Source of the DNA: a virus
Reading direction: 5' to 3' (one strand)
IMG/VR virus record: IMGVR_UViG_3300026774_000001
Span: 1-60,694 of that record
Length of the DNA: 60,694 bases
Part shown: positions 9,771-60,694 of the stretch, piece by piece
Layout of the letters: the number at the start of each line of letters is the position of its first letter
Numbering within the stretch: the stretch's first letter is position 1
The notes under the pieces: model-generated
What the model was told of the DNA's origin: nothing
Database searches by the model: none
What the model saw: the letters and a program-made list of their open reading frames with translations, nothing else
Translations under genes and position numbers: made by a program

Positions 9771-10304
9771 ATGACTACTGTCCCGTGGGATGTCTTGGTC
9801 GCGAAGGCCAAGGAGAACGGACACACCGAAGTCGCCCCTGTGGGTGTTTATCAGTGCCGCATCGAGTCTGCCGAAGCTGGCGAGAACCAGAACGGCAATG
9901 CCTTCATCGAGACTCGTCTCAAGATCACCGAAGGCGAGCACGCCGGTAAGCGTCCGACGACGTTCTACCACAAGATCTACCAGACCGAGAAGACGGTCAA
10001 CATCTTCATGCAGAACATGAAGGCGTTCGGCATCACGGACGAAACCGTCCTGCAGCAGCGTCCCACCCTTGACCAGGTGGCGCGTGCGATCATCGGAAAG
10101 ACCGTCACAGTCAAGACGAAGGTTGCCACGGACAACCGGAAGAACAACGAGGTCAAGATGGACCGCGAGGGCAACCCTCAGGTCGAGGTGAGCTGGTCTT
10201 TCAGCGCTCCGCGTGACGGCGCGGTCGCCGTGACCGAGTTCCCCCCGGTTGGTGGCGGCGCCCCCGCTATGACCTATGGCAGCGCGATCGACCCCGGTTT
10301 CTAG
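9771..10304 (+). CDS. DUF669-like putative ssDNA-binding protein (177 aa)
   Basis: VGVYQCRIESAEAGENQNGNAFIETRLKITEGEHAGK resembles DUF669 N-terminal OB-like pattern; synteny with AAA_24. Confidence 0.55.
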   Translation: MTTVPWDVLVAKAKENGHTEVAPVGVYQCRIESAEAGENQNGNAFIETRLKITEGEHAGKRPTTFYHKIYQTEKTVNIFMQNMKAFGITDETVLQQRPTLDQVARAIIGKTVTVKTKVATDNRKNNEVKMDREGNPQVEVSWSFSAPRDGAVAVTEFPPVGGGAPAMTYGSAIDPGF

Positions 10305-10313
10305 AACACCCAA

Positions 10314-10339
10314 GGGGCTCCCGACTGGGAGCCCCTTTC
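10314..10339 (+). terminator. stem-loop ggggctccc-gact-gggagcccc + TTT
   Basis: 9-bp perfect stem then tttc. Confidence 0.6.
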
Positions 10340-10358
10340 ACTCTTTGGAGGTAAACTC

Positions 10359-10850
10359 ATGTACGTGGCGACAAACCGTCAGAAAAAGAACGCCTTCGCG
10401 AAGCGGGCCGACTTGCAGCGCAAGGCCGAGGAGAAACCCAAGGCCGCGCCTCGCGCGACCCCAACGCCCGTGGCCGAGCCGAAGCCTGATCTCGAAGCGC
10501 TGAAGGCTGCGGCGGCGCTGGCGGCTGCTCTCATTCACGCGGATGCACCTGACGAGCTGGAGACATCGGACGAGATTCAAGGGGGGTCTGGAACTGATTT
10601 GGAGCCCGAAGCCGAGGCCGAACCGGAGCCCAAGCGCGGCCGTCCGATGTCCGCTGCGGTCGCCAAGCGGAACGCTACGATCCTCCAGCTTCTCGCCGAG
10701 AACCCCGAAGGGCTGTCGAAGCCGCAGCTCGCTACGGAACTCCGAGAGAAGGAGGCGAACGTGTACACCTCGCTGCGCCGTCTCCAGAGTGACGGGAAGG
10801 TTCGGATGGAGAACACCGAAGGTACCAAGTACCTGTGGTACCTGGTCTGA
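10359..10850 (+). CDS. winged-helix DNA-binding protein with Lys/Ala/Pro-rich N-terminus (163 aa)
   Basis: C-terminal ILQLLAENPEGLSKPQLATELREKEANVYTSLRRLQSDGKV = MarR/wHTH-like. Confidence 0.6.
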   Translation: MYVATNRQKKNAFAKRADLQRKAEEKPKAAPRATPTPVAEPKPDLEALKAAAALAAALIHADAPDELETSDEIQGGSGTDLEPEAEAEPEPKRGRPMSAAVAKRNATILQLLAENPEGLSKPQLATELREKEANVYTSLRRLQSDGKVRMENTEGTKYLWYLV

Positions 10851-10880
10851 CCTGCGGAAACGTTCAGGGTTACCCCGGTG

Positions 10881-10909
10881 TTGACAGCATCGGGGACACC
10901 TGATAGGTT
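10881..10909 (+). promoter_or_regulatory. promoter TTGACA-N17-TAGGTT (extended TGa)
   Basis: Consensus -35 lies in the 7-nt loop of hairpin 10873-10895; near-identical cassette at 11288. Confidence 0.6.
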
Positions 10910-10954
10910 ATTTCTACAAGCAAGATGAAGACCAACGATGCAAGGATGATTACC

Positions 10955-11263
10955 ATGAACGTTACCGCGAAGCACGGGCAGGCCGCAGTTCACCTCGGCG
11001 GACGCGAGATGAACAACGGGCGCTGGTCACCCGTCTGCGGGACCCAGCACCACAACGCCGGAGGTCGCGAGGTCACCCCGCTGCGACCCACAGACAAGCC
11101 TGTCACCTGCAAGCGTTGTCTGAAGACCATTGCCATGGACGAGGCGAAGGCTGCGGTCACGGTCAAGACTCCCGCTCAGGTCCTGGTTACCGACGTCGAG
11201 ACTGCCCCCGATGTCGCTGCCTTCCACCGCAAGCTGAAGGCTGGCATCGGCCTGACCTGGTAA
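10955..11263 (+). CDS. hypothetical protein (102 aa)
   Basis: ATG 10955 with SD gcaagga (ORF track extends to 10925, which is the conserved leader). Confidence 0.6.
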   Translation: MNVTAKHGQAAVHLGGREMNNGRWSPVCGTQHHNAGGREVTPLRPTDKPVTCKRCLKTIAMDEAKAAVTVKTPAQVLVTDVETAPDVAAFHRKLKAGIGLTW

Positions 11264-11287
11264 AACAAGAAAGTCGGACCCACGGGG

Positions 11288-11316
11288 TTGACAGCCCCGT
11301 GGGACTCTGATAGATT
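11288..11316 (+). promoter_or_regulatory. promoter TTGACA-N17-TAGATT (extended TGa)
   Basis: -35 in loop of 9-bp hairpin 11279-11303. Confidence 0.6.
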
Positions 11317-11360
11317 ACTTGTATTAGCAAGATGAAGACCAACGACGTAAGGACGAAACC

Positions 11361-11639
11361 ATGCAGATCATCGCCGCTCACTGCGAATTCCCCGAATCTC
11401 AGAAGATGGGCGTGAATCAACACCTCATCATCGACGCTGCGGCCAGCGTCGGCAAGGAATTCCCCGAGGTGATCGGGCACGTGACCGTGATCCGTGGATT
11501 CGGCCACTTCATCGGTGACCGGTACAGCGCGCTTAAGGGCATGGAAGCTGTTATCGCACTCGACGACGCGGGCTCTATGCGACGCATCAAAGAGCTTTTG
11601 CAGTCCGGCCTTCGGAACGGTCACGACGACCGGCATTAG
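11361..11639 (+). CDS. hypothetical protein (92 aa)
   Basis: ORF track; SD gtaagga. Confidence 0.65.
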   Translation: MQIIAAHCEFPESQKMGVNQHLIIDAAASVGKEFPEVIGHVTVIRGFGHFIGDRYSALKGMEAVIALDDAGSMRRIKELLQSGLRNGHDDRH

Positions 11640-11645
11640 GCAAGG

Positions 11646-11665
11646 GCGGGGCCTTCGGGCCCCGC
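11646..11665 (+). terminator. stem-loop gcggggcc-ttcg-ggccccgc
   Basis: 8-bp GC stem just after stop 11639; no T tract. Confidence 0.45.
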
Positions 11666-11703
11666 ATATAGTAAGATCAAATACGGACTTCGGTCCGGCA
11701 CAA

Positions 11704-11781
11704 GCCCCGGGCGGACGCGCCCTACTGGTCAAGCAGGGGAAAAGATCCCTGAGCCAGGTGGTTCGAATCCACCGAGGGGCA
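11704..11781 (+). other. tRNA-like element (canonical T-arm, imperfect cloverleaf)
   Basis: GGTGG-TTCGAAT-CCACC T-arm at 11757-11773 and 5/7 acceptor pairing (gccccgg / gaggggc); no canonical D or 7-nt anticodon loop found by hand. Confidence 0.3.
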
Positions 11782-11911
11782 CGAATGCAGTACCAGGCAT
11801 CGCCGTGCAGGGAGCGTTATTGAGCGCTTACGCTTGCGGGAGATTGGACCTCGGGAGCGTTGCCTTCCGGGGTGTGGACGACGATCGTAACGGGTCGGGT
11901 GTCCGCCACAT

Positions 11912-11984
11912 GCACCGTTAGCTCAATGGAACGAGCGGCTGTCTTACAAACAGCGGGTCGGGGGTTCGACTCCCTCACGGTGTA
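11912..11984 (+). tRNA. tRNA-Val (anticodon TAC)
   Basis: Hand-folded 73-nt cloverleaf: acceptor gcaccgt/acggtgt, D gctc-aatggaac-gagc, anticodon arm gctgt-cTTACaa-acagc, T-arm ggggg-ttcgact-ccctc; no encoded CCA. Confidence 0.85.
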
Positions 11985-12066
11985 CTAGGTTCCAGAGGAC
12001 GTAGCCGCTAAGTCGGTTGGCGTGGGGTCAACAAACGTGGATGTAGCGCACCACCTGGAACCGCTA

Positions 12067-12139
12067 GGGCTGTTAGCTCCAACGGTAGAGCATCTGCTTT
12101 GCAAGCAGAGGGTTGTCGGTTCGAATCCGACATGGTCCA
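12067..12139 (+). tRNA. tRNA-Ala (anticodon TGC)
   Basis: 73-nt cloverleaf: acceptor gggctgt/atggtcc with G3:U70 Ala identity pair, D gctc-caacggta-gagc, anticodon arm tctgc-tTTGCaa-gcaga, T-arm gtcgg-ttcgaat-ccgac. Confidence 0.88.
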
Positions 12140-12190
12140 CGCGGGGAGGTTGGGCGCGCTGTGCGTGTTCGGCGCTCCGCACTACAACAT

Positions 12191-12318
12191 GGGTGTGTAC
12201 GGAAGGTCTCCGGTTCGATTCCGGTATCCGCGCGGTGCGGTGTGAGGTTCGATTCCTCTTAACCATGGTGGCGAATAGGGGGATACCCCGCCTGAGGGTT
12301 CGAATCCCTCCACACCCT
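12191..12318 (+). other. tRNA-derived / tRNA-like segment with three T-arm hairpins
   Basis: ccgg-ttcgatt-ccgg (12210-12224), gagg-ttcgatt-cctc (12244-12258), gaggg-ttcgaat-ccctc (12294-12310); perfect 7-bp closing helix gggtgtg (12191) / cacaccc (12311); no standard cloverleaf. Confidence 0.3.
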
Positions 12319-12434
12319 CAAGGTTCGGTGTCTCGCGAGTCCTGTCACGTTGAACGGCGTGACCTGAAAAGGCCGCAGGCCCTGCAAGGGGTACCGCGAG
12401 CCCGAACCGTAATACCTACAACGACGGAAGAAGG

Positions 12435-13061
12435 ATGATGCGAACTTACCCAAAGATCCCCGGTCCGTACAAGCGACACACAGAGGGGCCGGACCGGAAC
12501 AAACTCATCATCGGCCGTTGGACCTCACCGGAACTCGGGGCGCTCGCCAAACTCGATTGGACCTGGACTGAAAAAGTGGACGGGACGAACATCCGCGTCC
12601 ACTGGGACGGACACAGAGTCACCTTCGGTGGTCGCACCGACAACGCCCAGATTCCCGCGAAGCTCATTGAAGTGCTGCGAGCCCTCTTCACGGAAGAGAT
12701 CTTTGAACAAACCTTCAACGACACCGAGGTCACGCTCTTCGGCGAGGGGTTCGGTTCAGGTATCCAGTCGGGCGGAATCTACCGATCAGACCAAGGGTTC
12801 GCACTCTTCGACGTTCTGATTGGGCAGTTCTGGCTCAAGCGTCAGGATGTTGTCGACGTAGCGAACAAGATGGGTATCGAGTACGTGCCGTTGAAGCTCA
12901 CGGCTCCGATCTCCGAAGCGATCGACTTCGTGAAGGCCGGTGTTGGTTCCGACTGGAACGACGCCAAGGCCGAGGGCCTGGTGGGTGTTGCTCCCGAAGG
13001 GCTGCTCTCCCGATCTGGTGAACGGATCATGGTCAAGATCAAACACAAAGACTTCCAGTAG
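12435..13061 (+). CDS. ATP-dependent RNA ligase-family nucleotidyltransferase (208 aa)
   Basis: Motif I EKVDGTN (KxDG), motif III LFGEGFG, motif IV AEGLVGV, motif V MVKIKHKDF. Confidence 0.75.
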   Translation: MMRTYPKIPGPYKRHTEGPDRNKLIIGRWTSPELGALAKLDWTWTEKVDGTNIRVHWDGHRVTFGGRTDNAQIPAKLIEVLRALFTEEIFEQTFNDTEVTLFGEGFGSGIQSGGIYRSDQGFALFDVLIGQFWLKRQDVVDVANKMGIEYVPLKLTAPISEAIDFVKAGVGSDWNDAKAEGLVGVAPEGLLSRSGERIMVKIKHKDFQ

Positions 13062-13077
13062 GGAAATCAAACGCGAA

Positions 13078-13108
13078 GCGGGTACCCCTTGGGTGCCCGC
13101 TTTCTTTC
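13078..13108 (+). terminator. intrinsic terminator
   Basis: 10-bp stem gcgggtaccc/gggtgcccgc then tttctttc. Confidence 0.65.
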
Positions 13109-13109
13109 G

Positions 13110-13118
13110 TGCTATGGT
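13110..13118 (+). promoter_or_regulatory. extended -10 box TGcTATGGT
   Basis: Immediately after terminator, 27 nt before ATG 13145. Confidence 0.4.
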
Positions 13119-13144
13119 GGGAGTCCCCCCAAGATGAAGGATTC

Positions 13145-14383
13145 ATGATGGAAGATTTCACGTCAACCCCCGAAGGCGCACTCCTGAGCGCGTGCGCGCT
13201 CGGCGCGCTCATGCTCGCGCTCATCCTCTGGCGCACGGCGCAGGGCGCGCGCGCACGCGCATCGGAGCGCGCACGCGCGTGGGCGGACATCAAGCGCCCC
13301 GAGTGGGAAGCGCGCGCGCAGCGCAAGGCAGACGCGCGCGCATCAGGCGCGCGCGCCGACGCGCGCTTGCGCATCACACTCTTGAGTGCGGTTGCGCTCG
13401 TCGCGCTCGCCGCAACGAACCTGAGTGCGCACGCCACGATCACCGCCATACAGCGCATCGGCCTCACCTCCGTTGACGCCGCGATCTCGGCTGTGATTGT
13501 CTTCGAAGCGTGGCTCGCGATCCTGGGCGCGCTGTCCCTGCGGCACATGACGCGCGGCGAAGGATTCAACCGGTACGAGGCCGGTGTTTGGACCATGGCA
13601 AGCCTTATGGGCACTATCGCCTGGTGGGGTGGTGGCAGCCCCATCTTCGCGCTGTGGCCCCTTCTCGCGGCTGTCGCGTGGCACGTGGTCATCACCTTTG
13701 GCAGGCCGCACAAGCCGTCCGCTCTGGTCGTCTGGTGGCGTATGAAGCGCGGCAAGGCGACCTCGCAGGACGCGAGCGAGGTTCTTACCGAACGGCTCAT
13801 CACGCTCATTGTCAACACGGCATACGCGGCCAACGTTGGGCCCAAGATCACGCGCGCGTTCTACAAGCGCGCATATGATCGCGCGTGGGCGCGCGCGGAT
13901 GCGCTCGGCATTCTCACGCCGGAAGTGCGCGCGCGCATCCAGACGCGCATCGCCGCGCGCTACGTCGGTGCGCGCGCGCTCGCTCCTGAAGCGGTTGCGC
14001 ACATGAATCCTTGGAATGAGCGCGCATCGATGAGCGCGCGCACGGGCAACGCGCGCGCAGTGCGTCCGGTGAGCGCGCCTCCCGAGCGCGCACTCGAAGC
14101 GAGCGCACATGTTCCCGACGACGCGCGCGCACTCACAGATGACGCGCACGCATCGGAAGAGGTGCGCGCGCCTAAGCGGACCAAGAATGCGCCCGCAAGG
14201 GATGATGTGCTTGCGGCGATCGACGCGCAAGACATCCCTGCGGAGGCCAAGGCGTGCATGAAGGAATTCGTGGTCACCACGGGTATGTTGCCCCAGCAGA
14301 AGTGGATTGCGAGCGCGACTGGCAAGTCCATCGGGCACGCGGGCAAGTGGCTCACGCCGGTTCGCAAGGCACTCGGGTACTAG
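13145..14383 (+). CDS. polytopic membrane protein, DUF2637-like (412 aa), Ala-Arg-Ala-rich soluble regions
   Basis: ATG 13145 with SD gaagga; about 5 TM helices between residues ~20 and ~200; synteny with FtsK-like ATPase as in actinomycete conjugative elements. Confidence 0.6.
   Translation: MMEDFTSTPEGALLSACALGALMLALILWRTAQGARARASERARAWADIKRPEWEARAQRKADARASGARADARLRITLLSAVALVALAATNLSAHATITAIQRIGLTSVDAAISAVIVFEAWLAILGALSLRHMTRGEGFNRYEAGVWTMASLMGTIAWWGGGSPIFALWPLLAAVAWHVVITFGRPHKPSALVVWWRMKRGKATSQDASEVLTERLITLIVNTAYAANVGPKITRAFYKRAYDRAWARADALGILTPEVRARIQTRIAARYVGARALAPEAVAHMNPWNERASMSARTGNARAVRPVSAPPERALEASAHVPDDARALTDDAHASEEVRAPKRTKNAPARDDVLAAIDAQDIPAEAKACMKEFVVTTGMLPQQKWIASATGKSIGHAGKWLTPVRKALGY
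13240..14175. repeat. array 1 of alternating-GC palindromic motifs (core GCGCGCGC)
   Basis: At least 12 occurrences of (GC)4/(CG)4, e.g. 13246, 13310, 13333, 13347, 13851, 13890, 13927, 13970, 14033, 14050, 14122, 14163; all inside CDS 13145..14383. Confidence 0.85.
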
Positions 14384-14393
14384 CGAGACAGCG

Positions 14394-14424
14394 CCCGGCA
14401 CACCCTTAGGGGAGGTGTGCCGGG
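14394..14424 (+). terminator. 11-bp stem-loop cccggcacacc / ggtgtgccggg
   Basis: Perfect stem 10 nt after stop 14383; no T tract. Confidence 0.45.
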
Positions 14425-14577
14425 ACCGTGCCAGCGGCACACCCGCTGGCACACCGAAAACCACGATTGACCTGCGGAAACACTGTTTCGGCACACCGGC
14501 ACAGTGTGCCGAGAGTACCGCTCACTAAGTGTTTTCGCAGGTCACCGCGACCCTAGGAACAACCCGCCTGGTGTGCC
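14397..14577. repeat. intergenic array of 8-mer GGCACACC (5 forward, 3 reverse copies)
   Basis: Forward 14397, 14436, 14448, 14490, 14498 (half); reverse 14414, 14504, 14570. Confidence 0.8.
14468..14544. repeat. 17-bp inverted repeat TGACCTGCGGAAACACT / AGTGTTTTCGCAGGTCA
   Basis: 16/17 complementary arms at 14468-14484 and 14528-14544, flanking palindrome ggcacaGtgtgcc. Confidence 0.8.
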
Positions 14578-14591
14578 GTGCCGGTCGGGTG

Positions 14592-14597
14592 TATAAT
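14592..14597 (+). promoter_or_regulatory. -10 box TATAAT
   Basis: Consensus hexamer 38 nt before ATG 14636; no clear -35. Confidence 0.4.
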
Positions 14598-14635
14598 TAA
14601 TGCAGACCTAAGATCGAGACGAAAGGATCAAAGAC

Positions 14636-15109
14636 ATGACTGACGTAGTCGCCATCGAATCCACCCTGGGGAACGGTGCTGCGGGGTTCGTTGCCCTGGT
14701 GCTGTTCGCCGTCGCATGGATCATCAACGAGAAAGCCAACGGGAACAAAGCGGGTGCCATCTTTGCGCTGGTGCTCGCACTCGCCGGGTCGTTCGTGCTG
14801 TACGCGTCCACCTGGTCAGAGACCTGGTGCGGCTGGATGGGGAGCATCCTCACCGGTATCGGGGACATGTTCGGCGCTGAGATGTCGCTACCGTTCATGT
14901 TCAGCATGGCCTGCGTCGCCGCGGTCTTCATCATCGCGGTTGACCTGGGCGTGAACGCTAAGGACAACCCCTGGGCTGTCGGGGCCCTCCTGGTCGCCCC
15001 TGTGGTCGCCCACGGTGCTTCGGGCATCATCGGGAGCATGGCGCATGGGTTCTTCGGGGGGATGGCCCTGGGAGTTATCGAAGCACTCAAGTCATTGACG
15101 GGTGCCTGA
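14636..15109 (+). CDS. Gly/Ala-rich polytopic membrane protein (157 aa)
   Basis: ORF track; SD gaaagga; 4-5 TM helices. Confidence 0.7.
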   Translation: MTDVVAIESTLGNGAAGFVALVLFAVAWIINEKANGNKAGAIFALVLALAGSFVLYASTWSETWCGWMGSILTGIGDMFGAEMSLPFMFSMACVAAVFIIAVDLGVNAKDNPWAVGALLVAPVVAHGASGIIGSMAHGFFGGMALGVIEALKSLTGA

Positions 15110-16952
15110 CATGACCGAGAACGTAGAGAACAAACCGAATGCGCTCGCGCGCACGGCGCGCACCTCGTGGGGTTACACCCTGCGGGGTGCGCGCGCGCTC
15201 GCCGAAGATGCGCGCGCATGGACGCGCGCGGAAGGAATCGAAGCGCACATTCGGGAAAAGGATGCGCGCGCAATCGAATCGCAGCACCAACGAGCGATGC
15301 GCGCGCATGCGCGCAACGCGAAACGCAGAGGTGCGCGCGCGATTCCTCCGGTGCGCGCGCATGCGTTCACCGACCTCGAAGTGAATGCGCGCGCATTCGG
15401 AACGCGCGCATTCCGATGCGCGCTCACTCTTGCCGCACCGGCGTGCGCGCTCATCGCTCCGCCATGGATGTGCGTTGAAGGCAACCCCGGCGCGCTCCTC
15501 GCGTGGCCCGCTGCGTACGCATACCTGGCGTGGCTTGGCTGGACGAACCGCGAAGATTCGGAGCTGTCTGAGGTTATCTCGGTGACCACGCTGCCGCAGG
15601 CACCTACCGAAGAGAAGACGCGTCTGTTCTCTCGGAACCGCGTCGAGACGGGACTCAAGCCCAACGCACAGGAGTCGGCGATCATCAACCGGATTCACAC
15701 TTGGGAGGTGAACGCAGCGGATCGCAAGCTGCATGAGGTGTTCCCCGGCTCGCCGATCATCGATGAGTCCGGCATACTCATCCCAATGGAGTTCGCAGGG
15801 CTGTGGACGCCCGCGAAGCTCGATAACCAGGTGGACCAACTGCGAGCACTGCTCGCGGTTCCCGATGAGGTCAAGACGCAAGTCAAGCCTGGCGGTACCG
15901 CTGACCGTGCGGTCCTGCGTATTCGCACGCGAGTGCGGGACTTGGACCTCACCTGGTCACCGGAGCGCAAAGGGCTCGGCCTCAATGCCGACACGGGCGA
16001 AGTCGTCAGTGTCGACGTGACCGACCGCCTCAGCGTCGCGGGCATGTCGGGAGCGGGCAAGTCCGTTGCGCTGCGCGTACTCATGGCGGAAGCGCTCGGG
16101 CTGCCAAACACCGCGCTGGTCATCATTGACCTTAAGGTGGAAGGTGCGCTCTGGGCGCATGTCGCGCGCGTCGAGTCCGAGGCAGACGGTATCCAGTCGG
16201 TCATTGACGACCTGGTGACCGAGATGAAGGAGCGCGAGGCGATCATGCGAACCGAAAGCCTGGACACTTGGGAGCCAACGCCTGAGCGTCCGCGCATCGT
16301 CGTTGTCGTTGACGAAGGGGCTGAGCTGATGTCCGAGGTCCCCGACTCCGTGACCGGCCTGCGTTCGATCGCGCGTCGTGCAAGGTCGGCAGAGATCCCG
16401 CTGTGGTGGGCCACGCAGAAGCCCACCGTGACCGGACCGGGCAAGGGACTCGACTCCGCGATTTCGGCTCAGCTCACCTCACAAGTGTGCATGGCCGTGT
16501 CCAGCCCGACCGAGGCGCGCAACGTCCTCGGAGAGGATGCCACCGCTAAGGGATGGCACGCGGAAGACCTGCTTAAGGGCGGGTGGTCGCTCGTGCGCGT
16601 GCAGGGTGAGGACCGAACCCCGGACCCTACCCGCGTGTGGCACATGACAAAGGAGGACGTGAAGGCTATCGCCCCGCGTTCCCCGTGGCGTCGGGCGAAG
16701 ACGCTGGCCCCCGTGGTCGATGCGAAAGACGCTCTGGTGGTCGCGTTGGACCTGTCCGAGGGATTGCAGGGTGTGTCTACGGTCCGTATCGGCGTTGCTC
16801 TCGGCGTCTCTGACGCTGAGGTGCACGTGCGTATGCGCGTGCACGGTGTCGATCCGGAACCCAACGCCTTCGCGATGGGCAACGGGGAGAAGGCCCGTGG
16901 ATACCGCAGAGATAAGCTTGAAGCAGCGTTCAACAGGAGGAATGACCGATGA
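15102..16952 (+). CDS. FtsK/SpoIIIE/TraB-like DNA translocase (616 aa)
   Basis: Walker A GMSGAGKS, Walker B IVVVVDEGAEL, two N-terminal TM helices, basic ARA-rich N-terminus, possible C-terminal wHTH; start GTG 15102 or ATG 15111. Confidence 0.85.
   Translation: MPDMTENVENKPNALARTARTSWGYTLRGARALAEDARAWTRAEGIEAHIREKDARAIESQHQRAMRAHARNAKRRGARAIPPVRAHAFTDLEVNARAFGTRAFRCALTLAAPACALIAPPWMCVEGNPGALLAWPAAYAYLAWLGWTNREDSELSEVISVTTLPQAPTEEKTRLFSRNRVETGLKPNAQESAIINRIHTWEVNAADRKLHEVFPGSPIIDESGILIPMEFAGLWTPAKLDNQVDQLRALLAVPDEVKTQVKPGGTADRAVLRIRTRVRDLDLTWSPERKGLGLNADTGEVVSVDVTDRLSVAGMSGAGKSVALRVLMAEALGLPNTALVIIDLKVEGALWAHVARVESEADGIQSVIDDLVTEMKEREAIMRTESLDTWEPTPERPRIVVVVDEGAELMSEVPDSVTGLRSIARRARSAEIPLWWATQKPTVTGPGKGLDSAISAQLTSQVCMAVSSPTEARNVLGEDATAKGWHAEDLLKGGWSLVRVQGEDRTPDPTRVWHMTKEDVKAIAPRSPWRRAKTLAPVVDAKDALVVALDLSEGLQGVSTVRIGVALGVSDAEVHVRMRVHGVDPEPNAFAMGNGEKARGYRRDKLEAAFNRRNDR
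15140..15455. repeat. array 2 of alternating-GC palindromes (ATGCGCGCGCAT family)
   Basis: About 10 copies: 15188, 15208-15219 ATGCGCGCGCAT, 15222, 15262, 15297-15308 ATGCGCGCGCAT, 15332, 15351, 15383-15398 GAATGCGCGCGCATTC (16-bp perfect palindrome), 15403. Confidence 0.85.
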
Positions 16953-17185
16953 AACTCGACTGGGAGAAAGATCCTGAGAACTCTAATAGGTACAACGCGG
17001 AAAGTTTCCGCTACCGGTTCATCCTGCTGACGACAACGGGCGGGAAGGCGCACCTATGGGTGCAGTCCGTTGACGACAAGTGGGGGACCAAGGCCATTGA
17101 CACGTGTTCGTGCCGCTCTGTCCGACATGCGGAAACGATGGCGCAACGATTCGAGAATGCACGACAGGCGAAAAAGCTCAGGTGA
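16949..17185 (+). CDS. hypothetical protein (78 aa)
   Basis: ORF track; ATGA overlap with translocase stop. Confidence 0.65.
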   Translation: MKLDWEKDPENSNRYNAESFRYRFILLTTTGGKAHLWVQSVDDKWGTKAIDTCSCRSVRHAETMAQRFENARQAKKLR

Positions 17186-17188
17186 CAG

Positions 17189-17215
17189 CCGGACCCTGCT
17201 TGCGGGGTCCGGTTT
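17189..17215 (+). terminator. intrinsic terminator ccggaccc / gggtccgg + TTT
   Basis: 8-bp stem then tttcc. Confidence 0.6.
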
Positions 17216-17262: not shown

Positions 17263-17529
17263 ATGACCAACTACGGACCCTACAGCCAGTACCAAATGCC
17301 CGAGCTGCCACGCAATGCGCCGCAACGGGCCCCGAAGTACCCTGAACCCCCGCGACACCGTAAAACCTCAAACTGGATTCACGGTATCCTCACGATCCTT
17401 ACTGGAGGACTCTGGGGCATCGTGTGGGTTACCGCGGCGATCTCCGCAGGATCCGCTAACGCAGCGGACCGTGCTCGGTACCAGCGCGAGGTGCGGAACT
17501 GGCACGCCTATGAACGACAGATTCGATGA
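17263..17529 (+). CDS. membrane protein (88 aa)
   Basis: ORF track; SD gagagga; central TM helices. Confidence 0.65.
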   Translation: MTNYGPYSQYQMPELPRNAPQRAPKYPEPPRHRKTSNWIHGILTILTGGLWGIVWVTAAISAGSANAADRARYQREVRNWHAYERQIR

Positions 17530-17786
17530 ACTGGTATCGGTTCAAAACTGAACTATCAGCGTGGATGTCCAAGACCGTGCTATGCGTCTTGACAACCATG
17601 CTTGCAATCAGCACGCTCTTCGAGCCAGCAGGATCTATCAAGGGGTATCCGCTGTCGTGGCGCGTTGTCGCGGAAAACGAGTGGATGTTCCCTGTCGGCA
17701 TGACAATCGGCGTACTTGTGCTGTGGGTGTGCTACTGGCAGACGTTTCGAATCCTCCGCGCTGATAAGCGTTACGGAGACAGGTAA
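17526..17786 (+). CDS. membrane protein (86 aa)
   Basis: ORF track; ATGA overlap. Confidence 0.65.
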   Translation: MNWYRFKTELSAWMSKTVLCVLTTMLAISTLFEPAGSIKGYPLSWRVVAENEWMFPVGMTIGVLVLWVCYWQTFRILRADKRYGDR

Positions 17787-17798
17787 CGAGGAGACAAG

Positions 17799-18227
17799 TT
17801 GACACAGCACGGTGACAGGCTGTCAGGGGCTCCCAGCGAAAGCAGGGGGCCCCGGCCCGACTGGAGAACAAAGGCCGCATGTCGAGGTTATGCGGCGATT
17901 ATCGACCCATGGGATGCCGATCCAAAAGACGGGGTTGTCAGTGACACAGCAGCCGCGTTCTGCAAGCAATGCCCGGTCCGACGCGAATGCCTGCTTGAAG
18001 GACTACGCAGTGATCTGATGAACGGAGGTTTCGCATACGGCGTGTGGGGAGGTCTCTCCCCTAAAGAACGTCGCGCGCTGATCCGGCTCCGGTATCGAGT
18101 TGCCTGCCCGGTATGCAGGGGGCAACTCATCATCACATCCGAAGGCGAGAAATGGCAAGCGTGCGCATCGTGCGGTATCACCTGGCAGTGCCGCAAACGC
18201 AAGCCTGCGGCACTACCAGAGGGCTAA
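17799..18227 (+). CDS. WhiB-family regulator fused to a C-terminal zinc ribbon (142 aa)
   Basis: C-X-CKQCPVRREC WhiB Fe-S motif, GVWGG turn, then CPVC...CASC ribbon; TTG start with SD gaggag. Confidence 0.85.
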   Translation: MTQHGDRLSGAPSESRGPRPDWRTKAACRGYAAIIDPWDADPKDGVVSDTAAAFCKQCPVRRECLLEGLRSDLMNGGFAYGVWGGLSPKERRALIRLRYRVACPVCRGQLIITSEGEKWQACASCGITWQCRKRKPAALPEG

Positions 18228-25535: not shown

Positions 25536-26410
25536 TTATTTCCCGCGTTTCCTGCCGCTCACTCCCGGTGCGGTCAACGTCGCCATGGCCGCTTTCGAAT
25601 TGAAGTTGTTCGTCTTGTCGTCCCCGTACCATGCGGGTTTCGGAGCGCGCTTGCGCTCCGGTCTGCCGTTCCGCGGAGCCGCGATTGCCTTCGCAACTGC
25701 GGGACCTGCTTTCTGCATGTCCCACTCCGCCACCTTCTCAGCGATCACCGCATCGAATTTGTCTTTGTCCTCGGTTGAAGCGTTGCGCGTGGCAAAGTAG
25801 TACACCAAGTTGAGCCATTGATCCCAAGGCAGTTGCAAGTGGTCGACGTTGCGTGAAGCGCACCAACCGTCGAAGGTGGGCCACACCTGATCCGATGTGG
25901 CCCAATCCTCTAGGGAGATTGCGGCAACGTAATGCCTTTTCCCAGTGCTTCACCGATCACCCAAGTGAGAATTTCGTAGAACGCCCCGATGTCGATCGCA
26001 TCGTATTCGCCATCGAATCGACGCTTGAAGCGGCCGAGCGATTCGGACTCGAAGACTTCGGCAAGCAGCTTGAAGATCGGCTCAGTTGCATCACGGTCAA
26101 CGTTTTCATCCGCGGCGAGTGACTGAATTTCGATCGCCTTACGGTAGACCGCAAGCGCAGCAGGACTGACGGGTTCAGCCCCATCAGGGGAAACGAGTGC
26201 CAGAATTTCACCCGCGAGACGAGAGAACTCATCGACACGCGGATCCCTCATCGTTTCTGCGGGTGCCTGAGCTGCTGCCTGCATTTCCCCGGCAAGACGG
26301 GAAAGCTCGGTCATCCGCCCAGCGGGAACACTCGCCTTAAGGCTGAACACCTCATCGTCGATGTCGAATTCGATGGGTTCTTTCCGCGTGGTAAAGCTCT
26401 TACGAGTCAT
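25536..26410 (-). CDS. tail assembly chaperone G-T fusion via -1 programmed frameshift
   Basis: ORF 25536..25886 lies in the -1 frame relative to 25910..26410 and that frame is open from the slippery site at 25943. Confidence 0.7.
25910..26410 (-). CDS. tail assembly chaperone (G-like, 166 aa)
   Basis: Position immediately upstream of tape measure; acidic protein. Confidence 0.75.
   Translation of the reverse strand: MTRKSFTTRKEPIEFDIDDEVFSLKASVPAGRMTELSRLAGEMQAAAQAPAETMRDPRVDEFSRLAGEILALVSPDGAEPVSPAALAVYRKAIEIQSLAADENVDRDATEPIFKLLAEVFESESLGRFKRRFDGEYDAIDIGAFYEILTWVIGEALGKGITLPQSP
25937..25943 (-). promoter_or_regulatory. -1 frameshift slippery heptamer G GGA AAA
   Basis: Minus strand reads ctG GGA AAA ggc, 9 codons before the G stop. 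Confidence 0.7.
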
Positions 26411-52596: not shown

Positions 52597-53088
52597 ATGA
52601 CCGAGACCGAAGACAACCGCACCAGAGAAGAACTGGTCACGGAACTGCGAGCGGCGTACGCCGAGATCAGCAGGCAGCAAGACGCGTTGCACCTGGCGTG
52701 GCAGAAAGAGCGCGACGCGTACCGAGAGGAGGCTGCGCAAGCGCGTCGGGAGGCGTGGCGCGTCGTCACGTTCAATCCGCAGTTGTACGTCATGAGCCAC
52801 GTGGAAAACGAGTTCAAGTTGCTCATGAGCGCTGCGCGGGGTCACAAGTGCACCAAGGGTGGCACCGATATGGCCGAAACCCACGCGGCGATGCGTGCGT
52901 TCTGGGATCAGTACCGCTCAGTCGAAGGCAGTGCAGATGTCAGCGCTGCGGTTGAGATCAAGCGGCTGCGCGAGTACATGCAGGAGGTCGGGAGCCAGCT
53001 CCACGCGGATACCGAACCGGACGAGTATGGGGATGGCTGCCCGTGTGTGGGGTGTGATCTAGTTCGGGGGATCGATGCGAACGTGTAA
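52597..53088 (+). CDS. hypothetical protein (163 aa), coiled-coil N-half, CPCVGC near C-terminus
   Basis: ATG 52597 with SD aggagga. Confidence 0.65.
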   Translation: MTETEDNRTREELVTELRAAYAEISRQQDALHLAWQKERDAYREEAAQARREAWRVVTFNPQLYVMSHVENEFKLLMSAARGHKCTKGGTDMAETHAAMRAFWDQYRSVEGSADVSAAVEIKRLREYMQEVGSQLHADTEPDEYGDGCPCVGCDLVRGIDANV

Positions 53089-53216
53089 GCGCTTGCCAGA
53101 CTGGGGAGTGACCTGACTCAACACGCAATTAGGGGCTCTGCACCGGCCAGCCGCCCGAAAAAGAAAAACCCTTTCAAATCGGGCATCGACCCCGGCCACC
53201 TGGGCCCCGCGATCTG

Positions 53217-53225
53217 TGATATCCT
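53217..53225 (+). promoter_or_regulatory. extended -10 box TGaTATCCT
   Basis: 22 nt upstream of ATG 53247. Confidence 0.35.
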
Positions 53226-53246
53226 GGTCATTCACGATGAAAGGAC

Positions 53247-53465
53247 ATGATGATGGGCAACAAAGAAGAGGAAGCCAAGCGCAGGCTCTTGAAGGGGCTC
53301 ACTGACCCCGCCAAGCACAACCCCTACCACAAGGCGCAGCTCAAGAAGGATGCCGACAAGGCGAAGGCTGTCAAGGCCGCGCTTGCCAAGCGCAAGGGCA
53401 AGCACACCAAGCGTCGCGACGATGGTAACGATGGTGTGATTGACACAGGCATGTTCGGTCGGTAA
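53247..53465 (+). CDS. Lys-rich basic protein (72 aa)
   Basis: ORF track; SD gaaagga. Confidence 0.55.
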   Translation: MMMGNKEEEAKRRLLKGLTDPAKHNPYHKAQLKKDADKAKAVKAALAKRKGKHTKRRDDGNDGVIDTGMFGR

Positions 53466-60034: not shown

Positions 60035-60610
60035 ATGGATGTGTACCGAGATGATGAGGCGCGAGAGGCTGCCACCAAGGGCTGGGGGGACGAACCCCTG
60101 GACGTGGTTTCGGACGAGTTCGCGGAGTTCGCAGCGGAAGAGTGCGAATTCGACGACCCCACCGTGAAGGACTTCACCGTTTCCGGGCAGCCGTTCACTG
60201 GGCGTGTACTGGGATTCGGTTCCTCCCGCCACCAGAACGGCACCCACAACGGGCACATGCCCGGTACGGTGCTGCCCCGCGGGCAGACGTGCTCCGCGTG
60301 CCGGTGGGCCGATGTGGCGATCATGGGCGTGAACACTGACGACAACGTTCCTATGTTCCTCGTACTGACCATCGGCAAGTCCACGATCCCCGGCGAGGAC
60401 CAGCGGGTGTCGACCACGTGGACGCCCGACGCTCTTGAAGTCCTCAAGTCCCTGTACGTCAAGAGCAAGAACGGGCACCCCCCGAAGATCCCGATCCCGA
60501 ACGCCACCGCGTTCCGCGCCGCCGCGGCTGTCGACAAGTCGATTGATCGCGTGTTGGAGCGGTTCGAGGACATGGTGCCGCTGGTGCCGGAAGATGACAT
60601 CTTCGGGTGA
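60035..60610 (+). CDS. hypothetical protein (191 aa); 3' end lies in the terminal repeat
   Basis: ATG 60035 with SD gaggag; stop 60608-60610 equals nt 13-15. Confidence 0.65.
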   Translation: MDVYRDDEAREAATKGWGDEPLDVVSDEFAEFAAEECEFDDPTVKDFTVSGQPFTGRVLGFGSSRHQNGTHNGHMPGTVLPRGQTCSACRWADVAIMGVNTDDNVPMFLVLTIGKSTIPGEDQRVSTTWTPDALEVLKSLYVKSKNGHPPKIPIPNATAFRAAAAVDKSIDRVLERFEDMVPLVPEDDIFG

Positions 60611-60694
60611 CACAGGCCCCGACTTGCACGCAACGGCGCACCATGATAGATTTGACAGGTCTCACCAAGCTTTCGAGCTACGGGGGCCGGAAAC
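60596..60694. repeat. 99-bp terminal direct repeat, right copy (= 1..99)
   Basis: Exact identity with nt 1-99. Confidence 0.95.

Follow-up and report, generated by a model that had tools for sequence, protein, structure and literature searches.

A Tra-like DNA pump with candidate cis-acting sites in a clade of integrase-less actinophages

Introduction

Plasmids in mycelial actinomycetes spread as double-stranded DNA (dsDNA) by means of one pump and a few membrane proteins. Why, then, should a tailed phage in which no integrase is recognised carry what looks like the same kind of pump? The question is raised by a module of four co-oriented genes, orf1-orf2-orf3-orf4, which occupies positions 13145-17185 of the virus record IMGVR_UViG_3300026774_000001; the window referred to throughout is the whole of that record, 60,694 nucleotides (nt) in length. 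A first-pass annotation of this DNA had placed three plus-strand open reading frames (ORFs) at 13145-14383, 14636-15109 and 15102-16952 and taken them for a translocation module in the style of conjugative plasmids; all three are found at those positions, and orf4 belongs to the set as well. The reading that we favour, tentatively and with somewhat more doubt than conviction, is that the module may be a phage-borne dsDNA transfer apparatus of the Tra/TraB and Spd-like kind, with cis-acting sites of its own, which moves DNA between compartments or cells.

A DNA pump of the Tra/TraB type

The product of orf3 (15111..16952, plus strand) is very probably a translocase of the Tra/TraB type. It matches the Pfam family PF01580 (FtsK_SpoIIIE) with 47.7 bits against a cut-off of 24 (E = 1.7e-12) and the PHROG family phrog_17958, 'FtsK/SpoIIIE-like', over residues 30-547 (8.5e-56), and its best sequence matches in the Protein Data Bank (PDB) are to FtsK, with an E-value of 5.6e-8 across about 100 amino acids (aa). 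An AlphaFold2 (AF2) model built from 28 homologues has a predicted local distance difference test (pLDDT) score of 80.5. When this model is searched with Foldseek, a comparison that the first-pass annotation had called for, the FtsK motor (6t8o, 2ius) is returned first, with an E-value of 4e-16 and a TM-score of 0.63, followed by the conjugation coupling protein TcpA; the fold is not that of a non-translocase AAA+ protein, as it superposes on FtsK motors.

On sequence comparison, the characterised proteins closest to Orf3 are the Tra proteins of plasmids and of actinomycete integrative and conjugative elements (AICEs), and not chromosomal FtsK or EccC. It is 36.5-36.7% identical to Tra of plasmid pIJ101 in tblastn and blastp searches, with E-values of 3e-44 to 9e-56 (36.5% across 373 aa, E = 9e-56), its top plasmid matches are all to small Streptomyces conjugative plasmids, and the best NCBIfam model is plasmid_TraB. 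One homologue, P0120, which is 38% identical, is the Tra protein of a classical AICE, encoded beside a Prim-Pol, an excisionase and a tyrosine integrase. Terminases and type VII secretion ATPases are matched much less strongly than Tra and FtsK are, and neither identity was retained. More than 110 orthologues are found at 55-98% identity, many of them on contigs of 57-63 kb.

The start of orf3 is probably the ATG at 15111, one base past the orf2 stop codon, giving a protein of 613 aa; this start is favoured over an alternative GTG at 15102, from which 616 aa would be read, because the 93-98% identical homologues P0001 and P0002 are 613 aa long. Residue numbers given here count from the GTG. 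In the AF2 model, long charged helices (aa 11-72) are followed by a transmembrane helical hairpin (aa 91-148, with helices at 91-126 and 129-148) that contains a hydropathy peak at 107-125. The motor extends over aa ~185-530, with the Walker A motif GMSGAGKS at aa 314-321 (16041-16064) and the Walker B motif VVVVDEGAEL at aa 400-409 (16299-16328). Both motifs are invariant in the 28 homologues, including residues G314, G319, K320, D404 and E405. At the C-terminus lies a predicted winged helix (aa 544-615, ~16731-16946, pLDDT ~85), made up of helices at 544-551, 560-567 and 571-579, a short strand at 557-559 and a hairpin at 586-602. This region aligns with the C-termini of homologues annotated as MarR_2, a MarR-type winged helix-turn-helix (wHTH), although neither a Pfam search nor a PDB sequence search with the C-terminal 81 aa gave anything significant for the domain alone; the latter result also leaves a likeness to the FtsK gamma domain without support.

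The first-pass description of an FtsK/TraB-like ATPase is thus upheld by the PF01580 score above its cut-off, by the match to pIJ101 Tra (E = 9e-56) and by the TraB layout of anchor, motor and predicted winged helix. Of the 616-aa protein that it described, the Walker motifs, the N-terminal hairpin and the predicted winged helix stand, while the length should probably be corrected to 613 aa.

A clt-like repeat cluster ahead of the pump operon

If Orf3 is a pump of this type, on which DNA would it load? In conjugative plasmids the answer is the clt locus, defined by experiment as a region of 50-175 bp beside tra with direct and inverted repeats of 5-9 bp (PMC3583192; PMC4447253). The clt of pJV1 contains nine copies of CCGCACA[C/G][C/G] and that of pWTY27 four copies of TGACACC, footprinted by TraA (PMC3583192), and in TraB it is helix 3 of the winged helix that reads 8-bp repeats (PMC4447253, PMC3583192).

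A comparable cluster (14397..14582) is present in the 252-bp spacer that separates orf1 from orf2, with six exact copies of GGCACACC, four forward and two reverse, and ten copies in total of the looser form GGCAC[AG][CG]Y, which fall within 190 bp. In the whole window there are ten exact copies of GGCACACC against 3.3 expected, and six of the ten are in the spacer. Two copies of the GGCACACC type form the arms of a hairpin just after orf1, two others make up a perfect 15-bp palindrome, CGGCACAgTGTGCCG (14497-14511), and the final one, GGTGTGCCGTGCCGG, covers the -35 position of the putative orf2 promoter. Every pump-bearing relative has 4-11 copies in the same place and at most two elsewhere. 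The putative recognition helix of Orf3, EVHxRMR, is as conserved as GGCACACC itself. By analogy, the cluster matches the anatomy of clt, and the repeat words are alike too.

A palindrome array within coding sequence

A second candidate set of sites is embedded in the genes. It consists of G[AC]GCGC[GT]C palindromes and (GC)n runs in three blocks: block A (13194..13356) covers codons 17-73 of orf1, block B (13889..14171) codons 236-341 of orf1, and block C (15189..15497) codons ~16-130 of orf3, ending before the motor domain. Between 13194 and 15497 are found 24 of the 25 copies of GCGCGCGC in the window, 63 of the 101 copies of GCGCGC and 36 of the 44 copies of G[AC]GCGC[GT]C. No copies occur in orf2, orf4 or the spacer, and two occur in the 1.45 kb that encode the Orf3 motor. 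The first-pass annotation had reported candidate recognition repeats around the module, and the GGCACACC cluster and the palindrome array are such repeats.

Is the array more than a consequence of the proteins encoded there? The palindrome is present in all three codon phases, and the dipeptide Ala-Arg is written GCGCGC 22 times out of 28 here, as against 13 out of 91 in the remaining genes. If the same proteins are recoded with genome codon usage, 6.9+-3.0 copies of GCGCGC are left in orf1, where 38 are observed, and 4.0+-2.3 in the orf3 N-terminus, where 23 are observed; for the orf3 motor, which served as a negative control, the figures are 1.4 and 2. When the synonymous codons of each gene are shuffled among themselves, the observed count is reached in none of 500 trials. 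This excess, in both recoding and shuffling, indicates that the palindromes are selected at the level of DNA. Relatives with as little as 33% Orf1 identity share this excess, and a codon alignment of the orf3 N-terminus shows copies gained and lost at differing positions while density is maintained. The runs are 6-18 bp long, and no helical or codon periodicity was found in their spacing.

One relative, L044 (IMGVR_UViG_3300020138_000001), has a different mixture, with 12 copies of GAGCGCTC and five of GCGCGCGC in orf1 and the orf3 N-terminus. Its main use of GAGCGCTC points more to a dimeric binder with sequence specificity than to Z-DNA or slippage, explanations of the GC runs that are also weakened by the recoding test. 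The candidate for such a binder is Orf1, whose C-terminal helix-turn-helix (HTH)-like domain varies in one helix (GHAGKW, NCRKW, and SYCRKW in L044) along with the mix of palindrome variants; in L044, protein and site may thus have varied together. The array is not a general trait of phage or AICE Tra modules, being absent from the five loci scanned, namely those of YDN12, Xkcd426, Mischief19, AICE L005 and another Tra-bearing phage.

Opposite orf1 and the start of orf3 run long antisense ORFs of 270, 383, 221 and 264 aa (13039-14494 and 14608-15881, minus strand). They are most simply explained as a side effect of the stop-free palindromic GCG and CGC codons, and not as genes.

Relatives without the pump

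The two sets of sites can be told apart by their distribution. In three more distant relatives of 69-72% G+C (L007, L008 and L048), the orf1 homologue adjoins convergent lysis and tail genes, and no pump was found within the 7-17 kb fetched. GCGCGC is the commonest hexamer of the orf1 homologue in these genomes, at 19-23 copies per kb compared with 0.5-2.9 elsewhere, whereas the GGCACACC cluster is absent from the DNA fetched. It follows that the array travels with orf1, and the GGCACACC cluster with the orf2-orf3-orf4 operon. No more relatives of this pump-less kind emerged when IMG/VR was scanned further with P0243, with P0248 or with a divergent alignment.

The GCGCGC-rich zone also reaches small genes 5' of the orf1 homologue, at 6536-7021 in L007 and 6354-7707 in L008. 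The L007 gene, 486 bp long, has 16 copies of GCGCGC, and these upstream genes are unrelated to orf3. The array would thus mark a zone of 2-3 kb around orf1 and not particular proteins.

The membrane partners and Orf4

Orf1 (13145..14383, plus strand, 412 aa) had been described as a DUF2637-like protein with about five transmembrane (TM) helices. The topology is confirmed, in that hydropathy gives helices at aa 11-29, 77-95, 112-130 and 167-185 and the AF2 model adds one at 143-163, making four or five. The N-terminus begins with TM1, after which an Ala/Arg-rich helix precedes TM2-5; a cytoplasmic region of helices and a disordered linker come next, and the C-terminus is a domain of four helices that resembles an HTH (aa 352-410, pLDDT 85-89). 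The later TM helices bear conserved polar residues (S, E and WH motifs). The whole model has a pLDDT of 65.6, and a fold search against the PDB gave nothing significant, with weak matches to sigma region 4 and HTH proteins only.

The family assignment, by contrast, fails. There is no Pfam, NCBIfam or PHROG match for Orf1, and at E <= 0.1 DUF2637 (PF10935) is not matched by Orf1 or by the seven distant homologues scanned. As a positive control, the protein encoded 5' of the FtsK-like gene in Woodruffvirus phages (YDN12 gp69, Xkcd426 gp76, Mischief19 gp77) was used; this family has three or four N-terminal TM helices and a C-terminal HTH_17 domain, and DUF2637 is matched by six of its 21 members. 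Profile comparison (hhalign) of Orf1 with this bona fide DUF2637 and HTH_17 family gave a probability of 5% over 27 columns of the HTH only. Membership of DUF2637 is therefore rejected on the basis of the library scans, the HMMER profile search and hhalign. What Orf1 shares with the DUF2637 neighbours of FtsK/SpoIIIE genes is architecture and position, a polytopic N-terminus (aa 11-185), a C-terminal HTH and a place upstream of the pump, and the likeness is one of resemblance and not of homology. Homologues of Orf1 number 159 at E <= 0.001, with 60-97% identity among the 120 listed, and a full HMMER profile search reached 16 clusters among 1.84e9 representative proteins; as judged from these searches, Orf1 is a narrow, phage-only family that has no Pfam assignment.

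Orf2 (14636..15109, plus strand) is, as first described, a Gly-rich protein of 157 aa with four or five TM helices by hydropathy; it is rich in Ala as well, and 21 of its 157 residues are Gly. No relatives were detected outside the clade. Within it, Orf2 is hypervariable, at 34-40% identity in most relatives even though identity reaches 95-97% for the products of the flanking genes orf1 and orf3 (L011-L046); the exceptions are L036, L042 and L046, at 57-60%, and L018, at 96%. The pattern suggests that a small membrane protein is under diversifying selection or is exchanged as a cassette. Orf4 (16949..17185, plus strand) is a soluble protein that has 78 aa in all relatives and is present wherever there is sufficient downstream sequence. 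A search for homology between Orf1, Orf2 or Orf4 and the membrane protein encoded 5' of an AICE Tra found none.

Transcription units

The first-pass annotation had seen a single unit bounded by terminators at 13078 and 17189. The flanking hairpins are supported by RNA folding. The upstream one (13076..13108, plus strand, stem ~13077-13102) folds at -26.2 kcal/mol with a z-score of -4.8, is followed by UUUCUUU and, coming after an RNA ligase gene, forms the upstream boundary of the module. The downstream boundary is a terminator-like hairpin with a weak U tract (17187..17214, plus strand, -27.2 kcal/mol, z -3.1). The single unit, however, does not stand. A third hairpin follows the orf1 stop codon (14394..14424, plus strand, -25.9 kcal/mol, z -3.5); its arms are GGCACACC and GGTGTGCC, it has no U tract, and it is kept in relatives L002-L004. 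Ahead of orf2 an extended -10 element, TGTATAAT (14590..14597, plus strand), can be read from the sequence and is conserved as TGTATAAT or TGTATGAT in the same three relatives; we infer that it acts as the promoter for orf2-orf3-orf4. Together the hairpin and the -10 element divide the module into two transcription units, orf1 and orf2-orf3-orf4. In the latter, the orf4 start overlaps the orf3 stop (ATGA).

The phage and its relatives

Positions 1-99 of the window are identical to positions 60596-60694, an exact overlap of 99 nt from which it follows that the window is a circularly closed assembly and that the complete genome is ~60,595 bp; the genome is terminally redundant or else circularly permuted. 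What carries the module is a complete tailed phage. Its minus strand encodes a terminase, two portal/morphogenesis proteins, the major capsid protein and tail genes, and its plus strand DNA polymerase A, an SNF2 helicase, a PDDEXK nuclease, AAA_24 and DUF669 proteins, an RNA ligase, two tRNAs and a WhiB-like protein. A primase is also among the phage's own genes, beside DNA polymerase, terminase, portal and capsid, and replication is encoded by a module of the kind found in lytic phages. As had been claimed for this phage, no integrase is found among window ORFs of more than 250 aa; likewise, no Rep was recognised in the ORFs scanned, and no GntR-type TraR/KorA, plasmid maintenance or lysogeny genes were recognised in the genome.

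No similarity to cultured phages was found for the window at the DNA level. The nearest capsid proteins, ~35% identical, are those of the Streptomyces phages Xkcd426, phiSAJS1 and Mischief19, and, judging from the phage WhiB gene and from nearest relatives that are all actinobacterial, the host would be an actinobacterium.

Conservation was examined in three protein-index contigs and 37 IMG/VR loci. The order orf1-orf2-orf3-orf4 is kept in every sampled member with enough downstream sequence (more than 35 related contigs of ~60 kb), and the module lies between replication genes and convergent tail genes in these relatives. The gene set is thus conserved across a large clade of ~60-kb uncultured, integrase-less actinophages. 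Such synteny, with no Int, Xis or Rep nearby, marks the module as a stable part of the lineage and rules out an inserted AICE or other integrative and conjugative element, in agreement with the first-pass view that this is not simply an insertion.

The surroundings of the module have features of their own. The WhiB-like gene (17799-18227) lies just 3' of it, after two small membrane-protein genes (17263-17529 and 17526-17786), and its product is extended at the C-terminus by a segment in which CPVC...CASC spacing recalls a zinc ribbon. On the 5' side, tRNA-Val(TAC) and tRNA-Ala(TGC) stand directly upstream of the RNA ligase gene (Pfam RNA_ligase, 5.7e-15) at 11912-13061, a pairing that suggests tRNA repair against host anticodon nucleases. 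Elsewhere, ARAGORN reports a 99-nt 'tRNA-Pyl' with anticodon CTA (25853-25951, minus strand) that overlaps the ends of tail-region ORFs (25536-25886 and 25910-26410); either the call is false or this is a tRNA like an amber suppressor.

Comparison with known systems

Orf3 shares with pIJ101 Tra, pSVH1 TraB and pWTY27 TraA a single FtsK-like motor, an N-terminal anchor, which in pWTY27 TraA consists of TM helices at 68-90 and 102-124 (PMC3583192), and, as predicted for Orf3, a winged helix of the MarR type; its 36.5% identity with pIJ101 Tra lies over the motor. As with these proteins, its gene is translationally coupled to small genes upstream and downstream. The GGCACACC cluster resembles plasmid clt in having direct and inverted repeats of 7-9 bp in a short non-coding region, and its words recall those of pJV1 and pWTY27 (PMC3583192). 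Unlike the plasmid and AICE genes, however, orf3 is found in a 60.6-kb tailed-phage genome that lacks Rep, integrase and GntR-type TraR/KorA, the cluster lies 5' of the operon and over its promoter instead of at the 3' end of tra, and at its 5' end orf3 has a palindrome array, missing from AICE L005 and from the Woodruffvirus and other phage loci scanned.

Among spread proteins, Orf1 recalls SpdB2 of pSVH1 in size (412 aa against 409), in its polytopic membrane N-terminus and in having its gene beside that for Tra. It also resembles pIJ101 SpdB, with four N-terminal hydrophobic helices and, by eye, an Ala/Arg-rich middle and an HTH-like C-terminus, although blastp and hhalign detect no sequence or profile similarity between the two. 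Such a lack of similarity is to be expected, since Spd proteins are too diverse for similarity to be informative (PMC4170104). SpdB2 binds dsDNA and forms pores (PMC4447253). Unlike Spd proteins, Orf1 is also found without any pump nearby. For the array, the closest parallel is sps, a 12-bp palindrome inside the spdA coding sequence that is bound by SpdA (PMC4170104); there, too, a palindrome is repeated inside a spread gene and matches a repeated amino-acid motif. The scale differs, with one to three copies of sps as compared with ~36 copies of an 8-bp palindrome in three blocks and two genes of the phage, where the binder is putative.

Pumps of this kind are not confined to plasmids. FtsK-like genes are routinely annotated in Streptomyces phages, and an 'FtsK-like DNA translocase' is found in cultured examples such as the Woodruffvirus phages YDN12, TP1604, Geonosis, Xkcd426 and Mischief19 and the large phages Satis and Kradal. 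These pumps are Tra-like and 29-38% identical to Orf3, and the capsids of the phages are distantly related to that encoded here. Woodruffvirus phages are virulent and have no integrase (PMC11536984). Immediately 5' of the pump they, too, encode a protein of ~340 aa with three or four N-terminal TM helices and a C-terminal HTH, but this belongs to the DUF2637 and HTH_17 family and is not detectably related to Orf1. Their loci have neither the GCGCGC array nor the GGCACACC cluster and show no DNA similarity to the present one, and the FtsK-like gene is at the genome end, whereas orf3 lies between replication and tail modules.

Do Woodruffviruses have sites of their own? In an unbiased scan of the whole YDN12 genome, the top locally clustered 8-mer is GCCAGCGC, with eight copies in ~630 bp against 0.38 expected. 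It is part of the 9-mer CGCGCTGGC, of which eight of 15 copies fall at 52741-53373, seven of the eight in one orientation. This cluster lies inside gp68 and the start of gp69, membrane-protein genes just 5' of the FtsK-like gp70, and is possibly the clt of the Woodruffviruses. The first-pass annotation had regarded homologous modules in lytic phages that lack associated repeats as telling against its proposal; YDN12, with a CGCGCTGGC cluster beside its FtsK-like gene, is not such a case.

A Tra-like pump with a MarR-type wHTH and a coupled 98-aa membrane protein is also encoded by L006 (JGI 3300068085 contig, 10001-11844), an unrelated temperate phage with a capsid, an SPP1-type portal, a terminase and a tyrosine integrase. 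Tra-type pumps would therefore have entered several actinophage lineages.

The functional literature on such genes is thin. FtsK-like genes of Streptomyces phages are mentioned without functional data (PMC11536984; bioRxiv 10.1101/2024.02.16.580700), and a literature search found no paper testing the function of an FtsK-like gene in a lytic phage. SpdB2 homologues in phages phiC31 and VWB have been proposed to spread phage DNA (PMC4447253). By description, pZL12 may be set beside the present phage as a replicon of plasmid-phage kind, which conjugates as an episome and also makes infective particles (PMC4170104); its transfer needs a tra gene as well as two neighbouring genes (PMC3583192). Unlike the phage, it is maintained as a plasmid.

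A model for transfer and its alternatives

How might the module work as a transfer apparatus? Orf3 would form hexamers in the cytoplasmic membrane, with its winged helices loading on the GGCACACC cluster much as TraB does on the 7-9-bp repeats of clt. The pump would then drive replicated phage dsDNA across the membrane, or across a septal cross-wall, into the neighbouring compartment or cell. Orf1, and perhaps Orf2, may act as Spd-like membrane partners. Orf1 would most probably bind the ~36 G[AC]GCGC[GT]C palindromes in its own gene and in the 5' end of orf3, and in so doing could tether this stretch of the genome to the membrane beside the pump, while Orf2 and Orf4 would be accessory. The benefit might be that the phage genome spreads or persists within a compartmented, mycelial host and needs no extracellular step to do so.

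Several points weigh against this reading. The plasmid_TraB match of Orf3 scores 55.8 bits, far under the equivalog cut-off of 800, and no homology is detectable between Orf1, Orf2 or Orf4 and SpdA, SpdB or KilB of pIJ101, or DUF2637 proteins. The presence of orf1 without the pump in related phages implies a pump-independent role for its product. The palindromes are assigned to the Orf1 HTH, provisionally, by co-occurrence in six lineages, three with the pump and three without, and the co-variation of HTH and palindrome is loose, drawn from few independent lineages and uncorrected for phylogeny. The GGCACACC cluster, which overlaps a promoter and includes a perfect palindrome, could be a mere operator. 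We infer the mycelial habit of the host from the phage WhiB gene and from the nearest Streptomyces phages and plasmids, and the genome, at 60% G+C, is lower in G+C than Streptomyces chromosomes. Finally, a literature search found no experiment tying a phage FtsK-like gene to the spread of DNA.

The operator reading can be taken further. The GGCACACC cluster may be an operator and promoter of the kil-kor type, where a toxic pump operon would be kept repressed by a phage HTH protein, be it Orf1, the Orf3 wHTH or some other, the pump itself acting nonspecifically or on host DNA, in chromosome clearing or redistribution or in interference with septation or sporulation, as part of host takeover. 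The repeats do overlie the -35 position of a conserved extended -10 element, a perfect 15-bp palindrome is typical of dimeric repressors, and traB and traR form kil-kor pairs in which TraR binds repeats 5' of spd genes (PMC4447253). Yet no GntR- or TraR-like repressor adjoins the module, ten repeats in both orientations across 190 bp exceed what an operator usually needs and match the anatomy of clt (PMC3583192), and the pump retains a conserved, predicted winged helix of the sequence-reading kind. We consider this explanation unlikely, while noting that the regulatory and clt readings of the cluster are not mutually exclusive. A further alternative, which would give the pump the role that chromosomal FtsK/SpoIIIE has at sporulation septa, is that Orf1 anchors the genome to the membrane through the array for replication or segregation, the pump resolving copies, partitioning them or driving them into daughter compartments or prespores and not from cell to cell, with a carrier state or entrapment in spores as the outcome. 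This would suit the position of the module at the end of a block of replication genes (DNA polymerase A, SNF2 helicase, PDDEXK nuclease, AAA_24, DUF669, RNA ligase); since relatives have orf1 and the array but no pump, the primary function may be tethering, and a role in replication has been suggested for the Woodruffvirus homologue by Rackow et al. (PMC11536984). The pump, however, matches conjugative Tra (E = 9e-56) far more closely than it does chromosomal FtsK (E = 5.6e-8 over ~100 aa), and the ORFs that were scanned revealed neither Xer/dif-like nor ParAB components, so that segregation appears less likely again.

Superinfection exclusion or conflict between phages, in which the membrane proteins and the pump expel or block competing phage or plasmid DNA, is improbable in our view. 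Its best hint is the hypervariability of Orf2, at 34-40% identity where Orf1 and Orf3 are at 95%, a pattern typical of genes in an arms race; Orf3 also has a weak PADLOC match to mad8, the P-loop component of a defence system (E = 1.3e-16). The mad8 score is far weaker than that for Tra, Orf1, Orf2 and Orf4 gave no other match to a defence family, and the clusters of cis-acting repeats on the phage's own genome would be left unexplained; with mad8 the only PADLOC match, a defence system was not accepted. It is very improbable that the array is a by-product of Ala/Arg-rich low complexity, slippage-prone (GC)n, Z-DNA or mRNA structure and that the module is a decaying, useless fragment of an AICE. 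The motif does encode Ala-Arg-Ala in every frame, the segments are Ala/Arg-rich helices conserved as protein, and the run lengths of 6-18 bp and a spacing without helical periodicity might be expected of a by-product. Against it stand a 5-6-fold excess beyond what the protein requires on synonymous recoding, a codon choice sharply unlike that of the rest of the genome, the maintenance of palindrome density as positions turn over, and the use by L044 of mostly GAGCGCTC, which is not alternating purine-pyrimidine and so argues against Z-DNA and simple slippage. Nor is the module decaying, since each complete relative has all four genes intact and in synteny.

Implications

The more specific form of the transfer reading, that a clade of integrase-less tailed actinophages passes naked, replicating genomes between hyphal compartments or cells, with Orf1 gripping the array and GGCACACC loading the pump, we hold to be doubtful and rather on the unlikely side. 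If true, it would amount to a virion-independent, 'conjugative' leg of the lytic cycle and to a new kind of coding-embedded, centromere-like array. Whatever its function, the locus has elements that appear to be new: the Orf1 family, an array embedded in coding sequence with evidence of selection, a clt-like cluster beside a phage pump, and the split phyletic pattern of the two.

The use by phages of the plasmid route of spread has been a matter of speculation since the SpdB2 homologues of phiC31 and VWB. The present locus provides a concrete, conserved and testable system, with a pump of the Tra lineage, a candidate loading site, an array with a candidate binder, and natural variants that lack the pump. 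Should the function hold, the array would show clearly how a protein code and a DNA code can overlap, and plaque growth, host range and the ecology of soil phages would gain a virion-free component.

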